DNA from: an uncultured Desulfobacteraceae bacterium
Lineage (GTDB): Bacteria; Desulfobacterota; DSM-4660; Desulfatiglandales; HGW-15
Direction of reading: 5' to 3'
NCBI GenBank assembly: GCA_964580575.1
Contig: CAZOLJ010000004.1
Location: 30,354 to 94,353, forward strand
DNA length: 64,000 nt
The first letter of the stretch is position 1, and each line of letters opens with the position of its first letter. The notes under the pieces are model-generated. The model made no database searches and had not been told where the DNA came from. It saw only the letters and a list, made by a program, of their open reading frames with translations. Made by a program: the position numbers and the translations under genes. Positions 20,108 to 45,107 of this stretch are shown here, in pieces.

Positions 20108-21934
20108 TTACGTTTCCTTTATTTCACCGGTGAATTTCAGCAATTGCCTTTTGTAGTACTCCACGTTCTCTCTTGCAAGACTTATCGCCTCTTGGATCGT
20201 CTCGGCAGCCTCCCGGGCAAACCCGTTGGCATAGAGAGCCTCGGCCAGGGTATCGAGAAACACGGGCAACCTCTCAAGGGCCACGGCCCTGTGCGCCAGG
20301 GCAAGGGCTTTCTTCTTGTCGCGCAGCTCCGGCTCCTCCGCGGTCACGAGGATCCACGCCAGGTTGTTGAGAGCAATGGGCTGGTTCTCATCGAGGCTCA
20401 GAACCCGCTCGTAGAGCCTGATGGTTTCCCGGATTTCTCCTCTCTTGTGGTAGAACATGGCAAGCCTTTGCAGGAGAACCACATCGCTGGGATTCTTCAC
20501 CAGGTGTTCGTAAAGGGCCTCTTCTTCCCACTCGTTGAACAGCCTTTCCTTGAGGGGGCTGACGTTCAGGAAATACGCGAGGCTGATCATCGCCGCAAGA
20601 TAAAGGGCGAAGCAGACGCCGACAAACCGATTGTGCTTCCTGACCAAGCCGGGGTCCCTGAGAAATTTCCACAGCCATTCCACTCTCTGCCTGATGCTGA
20701 AATGGTGCCAGCTCGGCAAATCGCGTATCTTCCCGCTCAGGATGGCGATCGTCTCCAGGGAGCTTATGGTCTGGCCAGGACCTCCCATCATGAGGGCGGA
20801 ATAGAGGTCTGCCTGGCGCTCGAAGTGGCGCATGAAGAAACCCATGACATAGCGGAAATAGACGATCATGCTGACGAGGATCGGCAGGGCCAGCACAAAG
20901 TACAGGAAGCTGGCATCCGCCGAGGCGCCCGTCCTGAAGATATCCATCAGGAAGGGCCGCGTTGAGAGCCATAGGGCAAAAAAGTCCCAAAGGCCTGTGG
21001 AGACCACCGCGAACCCGATGAAGAACACGAGGTAGAAGAAGAAGTGCCGGTACCGGGCATGGCCCATTTCATGGGCGAGTACGGCTTTCAGCTCCTCCAA
21101 GGACAGGAGGTCCATGAGGGATTCGGTGATGAGGAGGTATCGAAAACGGGGCACCATGCCCATGATGCCTGCGGTCATCATCCTGCCTTCAAAGATGGGC
21201 CACCTCAGAAGTTCCTGGTACTTGAATTTCTTTTCTTCGAGAAAACTCTTCAAGGCATTTACTTTTTCAGAGGGAAGGAACGGCCTGCATCCCCACCAGT
21301 AGCGGATCAGGCCGGGCATGAAGATCATGAGAACGAAAAGGAAAAGGGAAAAGAAGACGGCCTCTCCCTCGGGCCTGTTCAGGAGAGACTGAAGGCTCCT
21401 CCAGGAACTCAGAAAGATCAGGTCATAGATCAGGGTGAGCAGGACCCAGGGGAACAGGACAGGCACGTTGAGCTTCAGGCTGGAGACGATGTAGGACCTG
21501 CGGGTGATCCCTGTATGAAAGGTGCGATCGTAAACAGGAAAGGCGAAATACCAGATGGTCGCCTGGTAGGCGATGAACAGAAGGACCGCCAGAACACCCT
21601 GGAGCACGGAAAAGGACCGGATGAAAGGAACCACCTGAAGCCAGGTCTTGATGTGAAAGAGGTGGACGTCAAGGGCGAACAGAAAGATCGCCAGCACGGA
21701 GAAGCGGAACACCAGAGAATGATACTGCTCCGCAGAGGAAGCCGTCTCTCTTTCCGGTTCAGCGATGGGACGGAGGAGGCGCTGAAATCCCCACCGGCAG
21801 TAGGCCGCAAAGATCCCCCAGGTGGTAACCAGCATGATCAGCGTATACCAAAGGGAATCTTCGGGAACCCCTCTCTGCTGGCTGATGCTCAGGATGAGGA
21901 GAACAAGGATGAAGTAGAGGACGTTGTTGAACAT
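20108..21934 (-). CDS. M48 family membrane metalloprotease with C-terminal TPR repeats
   Basis: 608 aa. Multiple TM segments, HEMGHARYRH zinc motif, TPR-like C-terminus (YHKRGEIRETIRLYERVLSLDENQPIALNNLAW). Confidence 0.85.
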   Translation of the reverse strand: MFNNVLYFILVLLILSISQQRGVPEDSLWYTLIMLVTTWGIFAAYCRWGFQRLLRPIAEPERETASSAEQYHSLVFRFSVLAIFLFALDVHLFHIKTWLQVVPFIRSFSVLQGVLAVLLFIAYQATIWYFAFPVYDRTFHTGITRRSYIVSSLKLNVPVLFPWVLLTLIYDLIFLSSWRSLQSLLNRPEGEAVFFSLFLFVLMIFMPGLIRYWWGCRPFLPSEKVNALKSFLEEKKFKYQELLRWPIFEGRMMTAGIMGMVPRFRYLLITESLMDLLSLEELKAVLAHEMGHARYRHFFFYLVFFIGFAVVSTGLWDFFALWLSTRPFLMDIFRTGASADASFLYFVLALPILVSMIVYFRYVMGFFMRHFERQADLYSALMMGGPGQTISSLETIAILSGKIRDLPSWHHFSIRQRVEWLWKFLRDPGLVRKHNRFVGVCFALYLAAMISLAYFLNVSPLKERLFNEWEEEALYEHLVKNPSDVVLLQRLAMFYHKRGEIRETIRLYERVLSLDENQPIALNNLAWILVTAEEPELRDKKKALALAHRAVALERLPVFLDTLAEALYANGFAREAAETIQEAISLARENVEYYKRQLLKFTGEIKET

Positions 21935-21967: not shown

Positions 21968-22126
21968 TCACCAGTAGAGGCACCGGAGAGCACAGAGATG
22001 TCTTCGCCTATCGGGAGATACCGATAGGCGAAAAGAACTCCATGCAAACATTAAAACAATTTCTAGCTGTGCTGTTTATCACTCAAATTATTCTTCTTCT
22101 GTGTGTCCTCTGCGTCTCTGTGGTGA
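21968..22126. repeat. copy A of a two-copy ~160-170-bp structured element (imperfect terminal inverted repeats plus conserved-core hairpin)
   Basis: Left end TCACCAGTAGAGGCAC (21968-21983). Hairpin ttcgcctatc/gataggcgaa around the core CGGGAGATACCGA (22012-22024). Right end TGTGTCCTCTGCGTCTCTGTGGTGA (22102-22126). Compare 43110-43281. Confidence 0.75.
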
Positions 22127-22131
22127 GTCTA

Positions 22132-23631
22132 CTAGGCGGCCGGTTCGGTCTGGGACGGCGCGAATTCCAGTTTCCCTCCTCCAGGCGGCATGAAAGGATC
22201 GGCATGGAGAAGGATGGTCACGCTGTAGCGCTTTTCGATGTCGGCCAGTTCCTTCCTCTTCTTGTTCTGGAGGTATCCGGCCACATCCACCGAAAGGGTT
22301 CCCTCCACCTTGCTCACATTCCCCTTTGAGACGCCCATAAGAATTCGGCGGAGATAAGAGACTGCCGCGGACTCCACGGAAATCACGATGCCCCGGCCGT
22401 CGCACGCACGGCAGATCTGATAGCTCTTGGACTCGATGGAGGGCCTCAACCTCTGGCGGGAGAGTTCCATGAGCCCGAATTTGGAAATATGAGAGGTGTC
22501 CACCTTGGCCCGGTCTTTTTTCAGTTCCTCCCGGAGCACCTTCTCCACCTCTCTCACGTGCTTGGATTCCCTCATGTCAATGAAATCGATGACGATCAAG
22601 CCGCCCAAGTCCCTCAATCTCAACTGTCTTGCGATCTCCCTGGCCGCCTCCAGGTTGGTGTTGAAGATCATGGTCTCCGTGTCGCTTCCGGTCTTTCCCC
22701 GACCGGAGTTCACATCAATGGAGATCAGCGCCTCGGTCGGGCTGAGCACAATGGACCCGCCGTGTTTGAGGTAAACTTTGTTCCCATAGATGCTCTCGAT
22801 CTGATCCTCGATTTCGTACTGATCAAAGAGGGGCCGCGTATCTTCATAGAGTTTCACCTTCTCCTGGTCCCTGGGGGAGATGATCTTCATGTACTCCTGG
22901 ATCTTCGCGTAGGTTTCCCGGTCATCCACCAGGATCTCGTTAATGTCGCTGTTGTACGAGTCCCGGAGCGTTCGGAAACACAGATCCTGTTCCTTGTGAA
23001 TGAGAGAGAGGGACGGCGCCTCCGGCACCCTTTCCCTCACGGTCTTCCACATTCTCACCAGTCGGGTCACATCTTTGGAGAGCTCCCGCTTGCTCTGGCC
23101 CGCAGCCACGGTCCGCACAATGTAGCCGAGATCCTCGGGCAGCTTGAGCTGGACCATGAAGGCCTTGAGCCTCTCCCGCTCCTCTTCGTTCTCGATCTTT
23201 CGAGAAACGCCGTTGATCGTGCGGCCGGGCGTCAGGACAATGAACCGACCGGCAAGCGAGATGTAGGTGGTGAGCTGGGCCCCTTTGTGGCCCGGCATTT
23301 CCTTGATCACCTGAACCAGCAGGTCCTGGCCCTTTTTGAGGGCTTTTTCAATAGGCGGGTAATTCTGGTCCCTCCAGGAGGAAAGATCCATGTGGTAGTA
23401 TTCCGGGTGAATGTCCGTCATGCCCAGGAATCCGTTCCGGTCTGTGCCGAAGTCGACAAAACACGCTTGAAGCTTTGGTTCGACCCGTTCCACCACCGCC
23501 TTGTAGATGTTTCCCACCTTTTGCTCGGCCGTGGACGTTTCGATCTGGAACGCATCGAGCGTTCCGTCCTTGAGAAAGGCGATCCTGTACTCTTCGGGGT
23601 CAACGGCATTGATCAGCATGGTTGTTTTCAT
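22132..23631 (-). CDS. rng: ribonuclease G (Rne/Rng family)
   Basis: 499 aa. S1 domain (VGNIYKAVVERVEPKLQACFVDFG) and catalytic core (SIVLSPTEALISIDVNSG). Confidence 0.9.
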   Translation of the reverse strand: MKTTMLINAVDPEEYRIAFLKDGTLDAFQIETSTAEQKVGNIYKAVVERVEPKLQACFVDFGTDRNGFLGMTDIHPEYYHMDLSSWRDQNYPPIEKALKKGQDLLVQVIKEMPGHKGAQLTTYISLAGRFIVLTPGRTINGVSRKIENEEERERLKAFMVQLKLPEDLGYIVRTVAAGQSKRELSKDVTRLVRMWKTVRERVPEAPSLSLIHKEQDLCFRTLRDSYNSDINEILVDDRETYAKIQEYMKIISPRDQEKVKLYEDTRPLFDQYEIEDQIESIYGNKVYLKHGGSIVLSPTEALISIDVNSGRGKTGSDTETMIFNTNLEAAREIARQLRLRDLGGLIVIDFIDMRESKHVREVEKVLREELKKDRAKVDTSHISKFGLMELSRQRLRPSIESKSYQICRACDGRGIVISVESAAVSYLRRILMGVSKGNVSKVEGTLSVDVAGYLQNKKRKELADIEKRYSVTILLHADPFMPPGGGKLEFAPSQTEPAA

Positions 23632-41980: not shown

Positions 41981-43084
41981 TTACTGGAACATAAAGCGCC
42001 GCATGCTGATGTTCATCAGGAGCCCCATGCCCACCATGGTTGAGAGAATCGACGAACCTCCATAGCTGAAGAAGACCAAAGGAATTCCTACCACCGGCAG
42101 CAATCCCGTGGTCATGCCCACATTGATGACCGTTTGCCAGAAAATAATCGCTACGACCCCCAGGGCGATAATGGTCCCGAACTTGTCTTTCGAACTCAGC
42201 GCAATGTTTATCCCCCACAAAATCAGAAAAACGTAAAGGACCAGCAAGCAGACGCCGCCCACAAACCCCCACTCCTCAGCAAGAACGGAGAAGGCGAAGT
42301 CCGTGTGCTGCTCCGGCAGGAAATGCAACCTCGTCTGGGTTCCGTTCAGAAAACCTTTGCCCCAGGCCATTCCGGACCCGATCGCGATCTTGGACTGGTT
42401 GATATGGTATCCCGCTCCGAGCGGGTCCATGTCCGGGCTGAGAAAGGTGAGGATTCGGCGCTGCTGGTATTCCTTGAGATGCATCCACAGAAAAGGGGCG
42501 GCGCAAAGACCGGACAAGGTGAGCGCCAGAAGGGATCGCCATTTCATCCTGGCAAAAAGCAGAATGGAGAAGGAAAGCGCGACGACCATGAGGGCCGTGC
42601 CCAAATCCGGTTGCTTCACGATCAGCAGGGCCGGTGCCGCGATGAGGAGAAAAGGCTGCCACAACTCCCTGAGGCCGAACTCGTTGATGTGGCTCCGGTC
42701 GTTGAAAAACCTGGCCAGACTGAGGATGAGCGTGATCTTGACAAGTTCCGAGGGTTGAAAGGAAAAGCCGCCGAACCCCAGCCACCTCTGGGATCCGGAT
42801 CGAACGTCGCCGATGAGAGCGACAAGCAGAAGAAGGCACAGAGAAAAGAAGTAGGACGGATAGGCCAGGCGCTCCAGCCCGTGATAATCGAAAGTGGTCA
42901 TGAGCAGCATGACCCCGATCCCCAGGAGAAACCAGTAAGCCTGTTTCATGAAAATCTGGGACCCGCCCAAACCCTTGATCGGGTAGGTGGCGCTGTAGAG
43001 ATTGAGCACGCTCGCCATACCGATGACGACGAGCAGCAGAAGCAGCACCCAGTCGAAATGCTGAAGCAGTCTTCGATCAAACAT
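41981..43084 (-). CDS. rodA: rod shape-determining SEDS protein RodA
   Basis: 367 aa, polytopic FtsW/RodA/SpoVE family. Downstream of mrdA. Confidence 0.9.
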   Translation of the reverse strand: MFDRRLLQHFDWVLLLLLVVIGMASVLNLYSATYPIKGLGGSQIFMKQAYWFLLGIGVMLLMTTFDYHGLERLAYPSYFFSLCLLLLVALIGDVRSGSQRWLGFGGFSFQPSELVKITLILSLARFFNDRSHINEFGLRELWQPFLLIAAPALLIVKQPDLGTALMVVALSFSILLFARMKWRSLLALTLSGLCAAPFLWMHLKEYQQRRILTFLSPDMDPLGAGYHINQSKIAIGSGMAWGKGFLNGTQTRLHFLPEQHTDFAFSVLAEEWGFVGGVCLLVLYVFLILWGINIALSSKDKFGTIIALGVVAIIFWQTVINVGMTTGLLPVVGIPLVFFSYGGSSILSTMVGMGLLMNISMRRFMFQ

Positions 43085-43109
43085 ACTCTTCGTTCCTAAA
43101 GAATGCTTG

Positions 43110-43281
43110 TCACCAGTAGAGGCACAGAGAAAGTATTTTTCATTTGCCGGGAGATACCGACAAATGAAAAGGCTCTGCTCTGAAGAAATCTCACTAAGGT
43201 CTTATGGCTTTCTTTTGTCTTTGAGAGGTTTTTTTATGAAAAGATAACTCCCTCTCTGTGTCCTCTGTGTCTCTGCGGTGA
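43110..43281. repeat. copy B of the two-copy structured element (see 21968-22126), inside the mrdA-rodA gap
   Basis: TCACCAGTAGAGGCAC (43110-43125, identical 16-mer). Hairpin ttttcatttg/caaatgaaaa around the identical core CGGGAGATACCGA (43148-43160). Right end TGTGTCCTCTGTGTCTCTGCGGTGA (43257-43281, 23/25 identical to copy A). Confidence 0.75.
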
Positions 43282-43286
43282 AATAT

Positions 43287-45107
43287 TCATTTACCGTAAA
43301 AGGCCTCGAACATTTCCCGGGCCATGGGCGCCGCCGCGCTTCCGCCGTGCCCGCCGTTTTCCACGAGCACCGCCACGGCAATTTCCGGCTTGTCCGCGGA
43401 CGCAATCGAAACGAACCACGCGTGATCGTTCAAATCCGGAGGCGGTTCCTCCCCTTTCTGGACCGGTTTTTCCTTGCCCAGCGCCACCACCTGGGCCGTC
43501 CCTGTTTTGCCGGCCACAATGGCTCCGGTCTTAACTCTTGATCGGGAACCGGTTCCGCCGGGCTCGTTGACCACACCGATCAGGGCACTGCGGACCAGAG
43601 CGATGTTCTGTTCTTTCGCCTTGAGTCGGCCATTCACTTCCGGAGTGAACTGATAAACCTGTTTGTCATCCTTTCCCACCCACTTCACCGCTTTGGGCTG
43701 ATACAGAACCCCTCCGTTGAAGAAGGCCGAGATCAGCCTGGCCATCTGGAGCGGAGTGACCAGCACAAAGCTCTGCCCAATGGAGGTTGAAATCGTCTCC
43801 CCCGGCTGCCAGGGAACACCAAATCGCTTGAGTTTCCAAGGGCTGCTCGGAATCAACCCTTCTCTTTCGGAACCGAGTTCATAACCGGAAACCGTCCCCA
43901 ATCCGCACATCCGGGCATAGTGGTGGATCTTGTCCACACCCAGCCGTTTCCCCAGCTTGTAGAAGTAGACGTCGCAGGATTCCACGATGGCGCGGTGCAT
44001 GGCCACGCGGCCGTGCCCCTGCTTGCGCCAGCAACGGAACGTGTGTTCGCCGAACGGGAACTTCCCGTCGCAAAAAGCCTCTTCGCGCGGGTCAATGCCT
44101 TCCTCAAGCCCGGCAAGAGCCATCACGATCTTAAACGTGGACCCAGGGGGGTATTGCCCTGCAACCGCCCTGTTTTGAAGAGGATGCTCTTTGCTCGTGA
44201 CGAGCCTCGTCCATTCCGTCCGGCTCAGCCCTTCCAGGAACAGGTTCGGGTCAAAGGCGGGATTACTCGCCATGGCGAGAATCTCCCCGGTCATCGGATG
44301 GAGCGCGACAATGGATCCTCTTTTGTCTTTCAGGCATTTCTCTGCAGTGAGCTGGAGTTTCTTGTCGATGGTCAAACCGAGGTTCTGCCCCGCGACGGGA
44401 GGCCTTCTCGATATCACGCTAAGCCGGCGTCCCGCCGCATCCACCTCCACCTGTTCGCCGCCCCGGATCCCGTTCAGGTTTTTCTGCCAGATCCGTTCCA
44501 CTCCGGCCTGTCCGATCAGATCCCCCTGCTTGTTATCGGGATAGTTGCCGCTCTCCAGCTGCGTTTCGCTGATCTCTCCGAGATACCCGATCAAGTGAGC
44601 AGCCAGCTCCTTGTAAAGATAGTACCTCTGCGGTTTGATCTGGATCATCACCCCGGGCAGGTTGAAAAGATTGCCCTCCACAACGGCCAATTCTTCCCGG
44701 GTGAGGTTCTTCTTGATGAGCACCGGTCTGAAAGCGTATTTCTGGGATTCCTTGCCCAGTTTTTCTTCAAGGCTTCTGGGTTCCAACCCGATCAGCGCAT
44801 GAAGGGTCCGGATGAGTTCCTCACGATCAGAGATTTCTTCAGGGACGACATAGGCATCAAAGGAGGGACGGTTATCGACAAGAAGTTCCCCGTTGCGGTC
44901 GAAAAGCATTCCCCGGAAAGGGGCCACATCCTGGAGCCGGATCCGGTTGTTCTCAGACTGGACCCGGTAAGTCGGTCCCTGGAAGATTTGGAGAAACCAC
45001 AATCTCAACAAGAGCACGACAAACACAGCGACCACGAGGAAGGGCAGACTCCTGAGTCGCTTTCGCAGAACTTCTACCGATGCCTGTTCAAAAGCCTGGT
45101 TCCTCAA
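43287..45107 (-). CDS. mrdA: penicillin-binding protein 2 (elongasome transpeptidase)
   Basis: 606 aa. PBP dimerisation plus transpeptidase domains, SxxK as PPGSTFK, KTGTAQ. Confidence 0.92.
   Translation of the reverse strand: MRNQAFEQASVEVLRKRLRSLPFLVVAVFVVLLLRLWFLQIFQGPTYRVQSENNRIRLQDVAPFRGMLFDRNGELLVDNRPSFDAYVVPEEISDREELIRTLHALIGLEPRSLEEKLGKESQKYAFRPVLIKKNLTREELAVVEGNLFNLPGVMIQIKPQRYYLYKELAAHLIGYLGEISETQLESGNYPDNKQGDLIGQAGVERIWQKNLNGIRGGEQVEVDAAGRRLSVISRRPPVAGQNLGLTIDKKLQLTAEKCLKDKRGSIVALHPMTGEILAMASNPAFDPNLFLEGLSRTEWTRLVTSKEHPLQNRAVAGQYPPGSTFKIVMALAGLEEGIDPREEAFCDGKFPFGEHTFRCWRKQGHGRVAMHRAIVESCDVYFYKLGKRLGVDKIHHYARMCGLGTVSGYELGSEREGLIPSSPWKLKRFGVPWQPGETISTSIGQSFVLVTPLQMARLISAFFNGGVLYQPKAVKWVGKDDKQVYQFTPEVNGRLKAKEQNIALVRSALIGVVNEPGGTGSRSRVKTGAIVAGKTGTAQVVALGKEKPVQKGEEPPPDLNDHAWFVSIASADKPEIAVAVLVENGGHGGSAAAPMAREMFEAFYGK

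Follow-up and report, generated by a model that had tools for sequence, protein, structure and literature searches.

The 64,000-nt window analysed here, part of a 4.73-Mb assembly of 197 contigs (genome G000), holds two related elements that contain no genes, copy A and copy B (Table 1). Copy A occupies the gap that separates rng (RNase E/G family) from an M48/TPR protease gene, and copy B the one between mrdA (PBP2) and rodA, with all four genes on the minus strand. Both copies open with one identical 16-mer, TCACCAGTAGAGGCAC, at positions 21968 and 43110, and their 25-mer right ends (22102-22126 in A and 43257-43281 in B) mismatch at 2 of 25 positions. An identical 13-mer core, CGGGAGATACCGA, starts at 22012 in A and at 43148 in B. 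The stems enclosing it, TTCGCCTATCGG/CCGATAGGCGAA in A and TTTTCATTTGCCGG/CCGACAAATGAAAA in B, consist of different letters and are still complementary, and the centres of the two copies bear no relation to each other. A first, sequence-only reading of the window had reported the identical left ends, the right ends matching at 23/25 positions, the shared core, the unrelated centres and the co-directional minus-strand neighbors, and each of these observations is confirmed. Shuffled controls gave 0.35 matches to the left end, even with three mismatches tolerated, and 0.00 to the right end; the likeness of A and B is thus not due to chance. When the minus strand is folded as RNA, the ends of each copy form a terminal stem with an inner hairpin (z = -5.4 for A and -4.9 for B). 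On the plus strand, the centre and right arm of copy A (22040-22126) contain a hydrophobic reading frame, MQTLKQFLAVLFITQIILLLCVLCVSVV..., opposite to the flanking genes and probably a side effect of the CTCTGTG repeats.

Table 1. Features of copies A and B, in window coordinates.
Feature	Position	Strand	Remarks
Copy A, gene-less, 159 nt	21968..22126		rng stop codon at 22132-22134 (minus); M48/TPR protease start at 21934
Copy A, R1 model match	21968-22037		66.7 bits
Copy A left arm, TCACC and three phased units AGTAGAGG / CACCGGAGAG / CACAGAGA	21968..21998	+	Aligned with 19 other units of the genome
Copy A hairpin, 12-14-bp stem, GAGATA loop at 22015-22020, CGCCTAT stem type	22002..22035		
Copy A variable centre, without second hairpin (present in the G002 orthologue)	22036..22098		
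Copy A right arm, reverse complement TCACCACAGAGACGCAGAGGACACACAG	22099..22126	-	Weak R1 match at 22056-22126, minus strand
Copy B, gene-less, 172 nt, within the mrdA-rodA gene pair	43110..43281		R1 match at 43110-43173, 61.8 bits
Copy B left arm, down to two units	43110..43131	+	Alignment with other units
Copy B hairpin, 14-bp stem, GAGATA loop at 43151-43156, CATTTGC stem type	43137..43170		
Copy B variable centre, without second hairpin	43171..43251		
Copy B right arm, reverse complement TCACCGCAGAGACACAGAGGACACAGAGAG	43252..43281	-	R1 match at 43209-43281, minus strand, 35.3 bits

The description of the element as "two-copy", also part of that reading, does not hold at the scale of the genome. 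The 13-mer core occurs 13 times in G000, and about 17 elements sharing a common architecture were found there, using blastn-short together with R1, a covariance model of one element end (arm and hairpin). The plan of the element comprises TCACC and three phased CACAGAGG-like 8-9-mers forming an arm of ~28 nt, a hairpin, a variable centre, the inverted hairpin and arm, and finally GGTGA. The hairpin at each end has 14-15 bp and a GAGATA or GAGGTA loop, and the arm consensus of the family reads TCACC-ACAGAGG-CACAGAGGA-CACAGAG, with all three phased units recognizable in copy A. Only A and B have the left end in its AGTAGAGG variant, where the consensus of the family reads TCACCACAGAGGCACAGAGGACACAGAG. 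The two hairpins of a single element are usually of unlike stem types, CGTCTAT and TGTTTGT, and the CATTTGC type of copy B recurs at C15:51722 in G000 and at locus L073 of a relative, G066. Copies A and B have one hairpin each, the second having been lost. This, and the presence of both hairpins at copy A's site in the congener G002, identifies them as degenerate members of the family.

Building a covariance model from the copies had been proposed in the sequence-only reading, and the resulting R1 model finds units well beyond G000. Within the taxonomic family to which G000 belongs, 46 of 61 genomes and 24 of 30 genera have matches, at most 80 in any one genome; the search returned none in one genus of ten genomes, and nothing in the window other than A and B. 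The exact hairpin 20-mer is found in 42 public MAG stretches, mostly labelled Deltaproteobacteria, Desulfatiglandales or Desulfobacteraceae. Spread across phyla was considered for contigs labelled NC10 and Anaerolineales and rejected, as their flanks are 70-75% identical to G000 contigs and the Anaerolineales one is syntenic; these contigs are probably misbinned relatives and provide no evidence of transfer. A comparison of the whole window with Rfam gave nothing at the gathering threshold and chance-level matches only at E ≤ 1.

Other dispersed structures are present in the same genome. Foldback elements whose arms consist of other phased 8-9-mer units (GGTNCAAGG, GTGACNAGT, GGGACAAAG) are located at C42:1125-1290, C20:59790-59886 and C33:23256-23388, the list of such regions also including a cassette at C24:33785-34441. 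At the C42 site, relatives hold an R1-type element in place of the other-armed foldback of G000. C48:20817-20926 (L132) and at least 15 other contigs carry an unrelated dispersed repeat, ~110 nt long, whose inverted ends read TTTTTGCAGGTTGCTCAAAAAC ... GTTTTTCAGCAACCTGTTAAAA and whose copies are 76-83% identical.

The hairpin covaries throughout the family, as the sequence-only reading had proposed from the two copies. Among 20 units of G000, 92.7% of cells are paired and 11 of the 15 pairs have changed on both sides; none of 500 shuffles reached this level, and slid controls gave 46-55%. In a set of 84 distinct units, drawn from at least 12 MAGs, pairing rises to 94.8% (slid controls 47-56%), and 11 of the 15 pairs have again changed on both sides. 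No correction for relatedness enters these counts, and many of the double changes come from two stem haplotypes, CGTCTA and TGTTTG. Between the orthologous hairpins of G000 and G002 at copy A's site, two pair differences are compensated. The arms display no covariation with each other within the family, those of the same element being 0.701 alike and those of different elements 0.707.

Such a helix could belong to an RNA module selected by the host, one of the options raised in the sequence-only reading. The arms would form a long stem in the transcript, an RNase III-type substrate comparable to the intervening sequences of 23S rRNA, and the hairpin would show its GAGATA loop to a protein, thereby tuning mRNA processing, stability or translational coupling. 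The setting of A and B is compatible with this idea, since both lie between co-directional genes, B even within mrdA-rodA, and must be co-transcribed, and the RNA folds predicted for the minus strand are strong. Moreover, the only mispair in the copy B stem, C·A on the plus strand (43147/43160), is G·U on the transcribed strand. Yet across the 84-unit set G·U accounts for only 2 of ~1,175 cells. A selected RNA helix normally tolerates G·U, whereas a palindrome that pairs on both DNA strands does not. The near-pure Watson-Crick pairing is thus read here as favouring a constraint acting on the hairpin as DNA rather than RNA. Transition mispairs are likewise without bias relative to the transcribed strand, at 2 against 2, a comparison of four cells only. 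The element is also quasi-symmetric and found in convergent gaps, and interiors are unrelated among copies, all of which fits poorly with a module built for the transcript. Overall, we consider a host-selected RNA module quite improbable. A terminator, suggested in the same reading, is unlikely and was discarded: on both strands a T-run stands before the hairpin and an A-run after it, and copy B is located inside the mrdA-rodA pair.

Comparison of orthologous intergenic regions, also suggested in the earlier reading, revealed gain and loss of elements between G000 and its congeners G001 and G002. The mrdA-rodA gap that holds copy B is empty in G001, where it measures 18 nt. In G002 (C19:96200-96500, corresponding to window 43040-43340) only a remnant is left, after a deletion across an 11-nt near-repeat, represented by TTCATTTGCCG in the stem of the hairpin and by TTCATTTACCG at the 3' end of mrdA. 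Most of the element is gone, and the mrdA C-terminus (FYGK stop) has been recreated from element sequence. Among 14 further elements compared, those at C2:7244, C47:20641 and C63:3384 are missing from G002. The element at C96:5180 is missing from both congeners, which dates its insertion to the G000 lineage. Two sites with elements of 183 nt and 202 nt in G000 have decayed to arm-only minis of 43-75 nt in the congeners. Copy B and four further filled/empty pairs revealed neither a target-site duplication nor a shared target motif, and the C96 insert exceeds the TCACC...GGTGA unit by 61 nt. The site of copy A is filled in all three congeners, with its termini kept and an unrelated interior in G001. 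Host selection could explain filled sites with conserved termini, and the survival of termini and stems at orthologous sites in three species despite loss of the interior is a point for the RNA module; empty and decayed sites weaken that option, the corresponding gaps in congeners being empty with no sign of replacement.

The gene-less elements have longer relatives. R1 end pairs in well-assembled relatives mostly span 135-300 nt, and versions of 570-870 nt with the identical end type carry an ORF of ~123 aa, GxxExxY / PDDEXK_3, between the two hairpins. Such ORFs with R1 ends are present at G061:C8:353907-354535, on G060:C244, in G066 (L073) and on the JGI contig L134, while G001:C4:678433-679004 contains a frameshifted GxxExxY pseudogene between R1 ends. 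R1-clade ORFs include CAVUFY010000008.1:354072-354440 and one on the JGI contig Ga0315541_1000040. The R1-cassette ORF matches the profiles TIGR04256 (4.7e-47) and PF13366 (PDDEXK_3; 9.3e-45); these were the only matches in Pfam and NCBIfam, with no GIY-YIG nuclease domain, and the protein has the expected acidic and lysine residues (...RIDILVDESVILELK...). The gene in full-length relatives, together with the multi-copy family extending across the taxonomic family and the second hairpin lost from A and B, goes beyond what the sequence-only reading contained.

The association is general for this type of gene: in seven genomes, about 21 of 25 GxxExxY genes lie between inverted arms of phased 8-9-mers. 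The arm unit varies by cassette (e.g. CACAGATTA, CGCAGAC, CACAAAGA, CACTAAGG), and R1-armed genes of two genera encode proteins that are 89.7% identical, compared with 44-58% identity to the products of other-armed genes. Other arm types likewise match their own clusters of GxxExxY proteins. As protein similarity follows the arm unit, the gene and its arms appear to travel as one unit, although co-inheritance of linked DNA alone could explain the correlation between protein clade and arm motif, without any recognition. In G000 itself, the two GxxExxY genes have either ACGCAGATT-type arms (C24) or no arms (C68), so that its R1 elements are without a cognate gene. The C24 cassette (C24:33785-34441) is intact, with ATCCACAGATTACGCAGATTA arms. 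In the congeners, the cognate R1 gene survives only as a pseudogene in G001 and as a truncated copy in G002.

The context of the R1 cassette varies by lineage: it occupies the lexA-imuB gap in genus g41 and the imuB-dnaE2 gap in JGI contigs, whereas the one in G001 lies upstream of rlmN. The lexA-imuB-dnaE2 mutagenesis operon on JGI metagenome contigs (L134-L141) holds two small-gene cassettes in consecutive gaps. The first has long (GCGCAAGG)n arms around a PF05635 '23S_rRNA_IVP' gene, and the second is the R1 GxxExxY cassette, whose GGTGA end is positioned 7 nt ahead of the dnaE2 ATG in L134. For the RNA module, this arrangement is favorable in two respects: GGTGA could serve as a Shine-Dalgarno sequence in front of the dnaE2 start codon, and the neighboring gap of the same operon contains the '23S_rRNA_IVP' gene with similar phased arms. 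A contig assigned to an archaeon (L133, CAJHZY010000003.1; label Candidatus Argoarchaeum ethanivorans) has a pair of gene-less R1 elements and, between them, a GxxExxY gene that shares 77% identity with the R1 clade, reflecting either cross-domain transfer or misbinned DNA of a syntrophic partner.

The R1-cassette protein has no relative in the PDB by sequence. Its AlphaFold model (pLDDT 74.7) yields only weak, generic matches to PD-(D/E)XK nucleases with Foldseek, the best one being the catalytic domain of the homing endonuclease I-Bth0305I (E = 0.016), a match that does not indicate the substrate. The protein family is large, as a PF13366 / GxxExxY search gives at least 8,000 matches, all 8,000 at E ≤ 1e-10. 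PF13366 is listed as a family of unknown function (PMC3424549).

Among known systems, the closest published logic is that of Ssn/NTS, small site-specific GIY-YIG nucleases acting on ssDNA; the hairpin repeats on either side of the gene are cut by the nuclease and have many further copies without a gene (PMC11893778). In both cases a nuclease-fold gene is framed by hairpin repeats that are also dispersed without the gene, and protein clades match repeat variants; in R1, the gene is indeed flanked on both sides by the hairpin repeat, and gene-less copies are scattered through the genomes. The R1 system differs in having a PD-(D/E)XK fold (PF13366) instead of GIY-YIG, in a composite repeat made of a three-unit phased arm and a separate hairpin, and in numbering tens rather than hundreds of copies per genome.

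A second comparison is with the intervening sequences of 23S rRNA, which are inserted in helix 25 or 45 of that molecule and excised by RNase III. Like R1, they are small selfish inserts whose inverted repeats form a stem in the transcript and which optionally carry a small ORF, of the S23p/PF05635 type (e.g. in Coxiella, PMC4990558). It is a PF05635 cassette with phased arms that adjoins the R1 cassette in the lexA-imuB-dnaE2 operon. However, R1 elements occupy intergenic gaps of mRNA rather than rRNA helices, and their cargo is a nuclease-fold protein.

The family also resembles REP/REPIN sequences mobilized by RAYT (Y1/HUH) transposases, in that inverted palindromic doublets with a variable spacer occupy intergenic sites, often just past stop codons, and are long-lived and decaying (PMC3116915, PMC3733652). 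A RAYT-driven origin could draw on this REPIN-like build, two inverted hairpin units with a less conserved spacer, and on the presence of Y1_Tnp homologues in these genomes. It is nevertheless largely refuted for the loci tested, and extremely improbable: no R1 unit lies within ~1.5 kb of eight Y1_Tnp loci in five genomes, and the G000 contigs with Y1_Tnp matches (C133, C44, C144, C151 and C14) contain no element. R1 units measure ~65 nt instead of 20-40 nt, no Y1/HUH gene is associated with them, and the cargo has a different fold. A GTAG/CGTC tag at the palindrome end defines REP superfamilies (PMC3733652), but this tag is not conserved in R1, where only about 8 of 20 units have a stem starting with CGTC, and CGCC, TGTT and CATT also occur as stem starts.

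Of the options in the sequence-only reading, a MITE-like mobile unit came closest, and in this sense its interpretation is partly supported. The elements recall bacterial MITEs of the Correia, ERIC or IS5-derived type in their size, their terminal inverted repeats, their position between genes and their co-transcription with these genes, and the dispersal of the element and its differing presence at given sites agree with that option; the absence of a target-site duplication and of a transposase-bearing parent IS does not. In a classical form of this explanation, the elements would be internally deleted derivatives of an IS with a DDE transposase, moved in trans, and the GxxExxY gene would be a mere passenger. 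Besides the terminal inverted repeats, the small size, the intergenic position and the presence/absence differences between species, a further argument for it comes from a subfamily with an outer shell, found in G066, G060, G061 and two further MAG contigs. G066 has 12 shell copies, and seven elements from unrelated loci there, compared along their entire length, share 87-98% identity. The shell is conserved over ~40 nt to either side (on the right at least) and is arranged as CTWAG-TACAGG-TTTTCACAATTACGGTCAC...(R1)...ATACGTGAGGGTATTTACGAAAGCTTGTA-CTWAG. It was seen at L026, L028, L058, L063 and L067, and also at L040, L044, L033 and L027, and in 12/12 copies an R1 unit adjoins the left shell or is no more than ~70 nt away from it. 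Both ends of the shell are present in five G066 copies, and these have identical 5-nt direct repeats, CTTAG/CTTAG or CTAAG/CTAAG. Direct repeats of this CTWAG kind are typical of target duplication in IS5/PIF-Harbinger-type transposition. The near-identical G066 copies had looked like proof of recent R1 mobility, a reading dropped on account of their common shell and its CTWAG direct repeats. No other young burst was seen, and this one may thus be an ordinary transposase-driven MITE carrying R1 as its passenger.

For the family as a whole, classical MITEs are decidedly unlikely. Copies A and B and most G000 copies are devoid of shell and target duplication, the TSD-like CTWAG being confined to the outer-shell subfamily, and no transposase parent was found. 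In G001, G002 and G061, R1 end pairs are never more than ~900 nt apart and none encloses a transposase; GxxExxY is the only gene ever found between R1 ends. The arms are moreover made of phased short repeats, and this three-unit design recurs with other unit sequences around GxxExxY genes generally.

We favour another origin for A and B. Very likely they go back to GxxExxY cassettes, as decayed members, without a gene, of a foldback repeat that occurs across the taxonomic family, and they are probably mobile or selfish DNA rather than a regulator built by the host. In such a scheme, selfish elements would enter intergenic gaps, often a few bases beyond a stop codon, and could be tolerated within operons because they would leave the transcript intact and not end it. 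The near-pure Watson-Crick pairing suggests that the hairpins are maintained as DNA structures, which may be recognized by loop sequence and stem shape. The most speculative step, drawn by analogy with Ssn/NTS or RAYT/REP, is that a cognate GxxExxY nuclease would act in trans on the hairpins or arms; we regard spread driven by this nuclease as tentative and rather doubtful. Copies A and B would now be immobile relics, given that G000 is without the cognate gene. Taken as a whole, an account combining decayed and selfish cassette relics, hairpins kept as DNA and nuclease-dependent spread appears plausible on balance. Movement of an element was never seen directly.

A more far-reaching version, which we hold to be unlikely, is that GxxExxY is a structure-specific DNA nuclease that recognizes its own GAGATA hairpin and phased arms and copies or moves both the cassette and its gene-less derivatives. 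This would define a nuclease-driven, transposase-free class of mobile elements, of which A and B would be fossils, with the arms acting as transcript stems that make insertion into operons harmless. We did not find foldback repeats of GxxExxY cassettes described in print.

For annotation, the lesson is that structured intergenic elements such as these are repeat relics, and not riboswitches or sRNAs. The covariation of the hairpin is real, yet by itself it is no proof of RNA function, and near-pure Watson-Crick pairing should be taken as a warning. If GxxExxY proteins do act on their own arms and hairpins, a type of intergenic repeat that is widespread among uncultured anaerobes would find its explanation. 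A second nuclease fold would then join the Ssn-type systems that combine a nuclease with its repeats, and such sequence- or structure-specific nucleases might become useful as tools.
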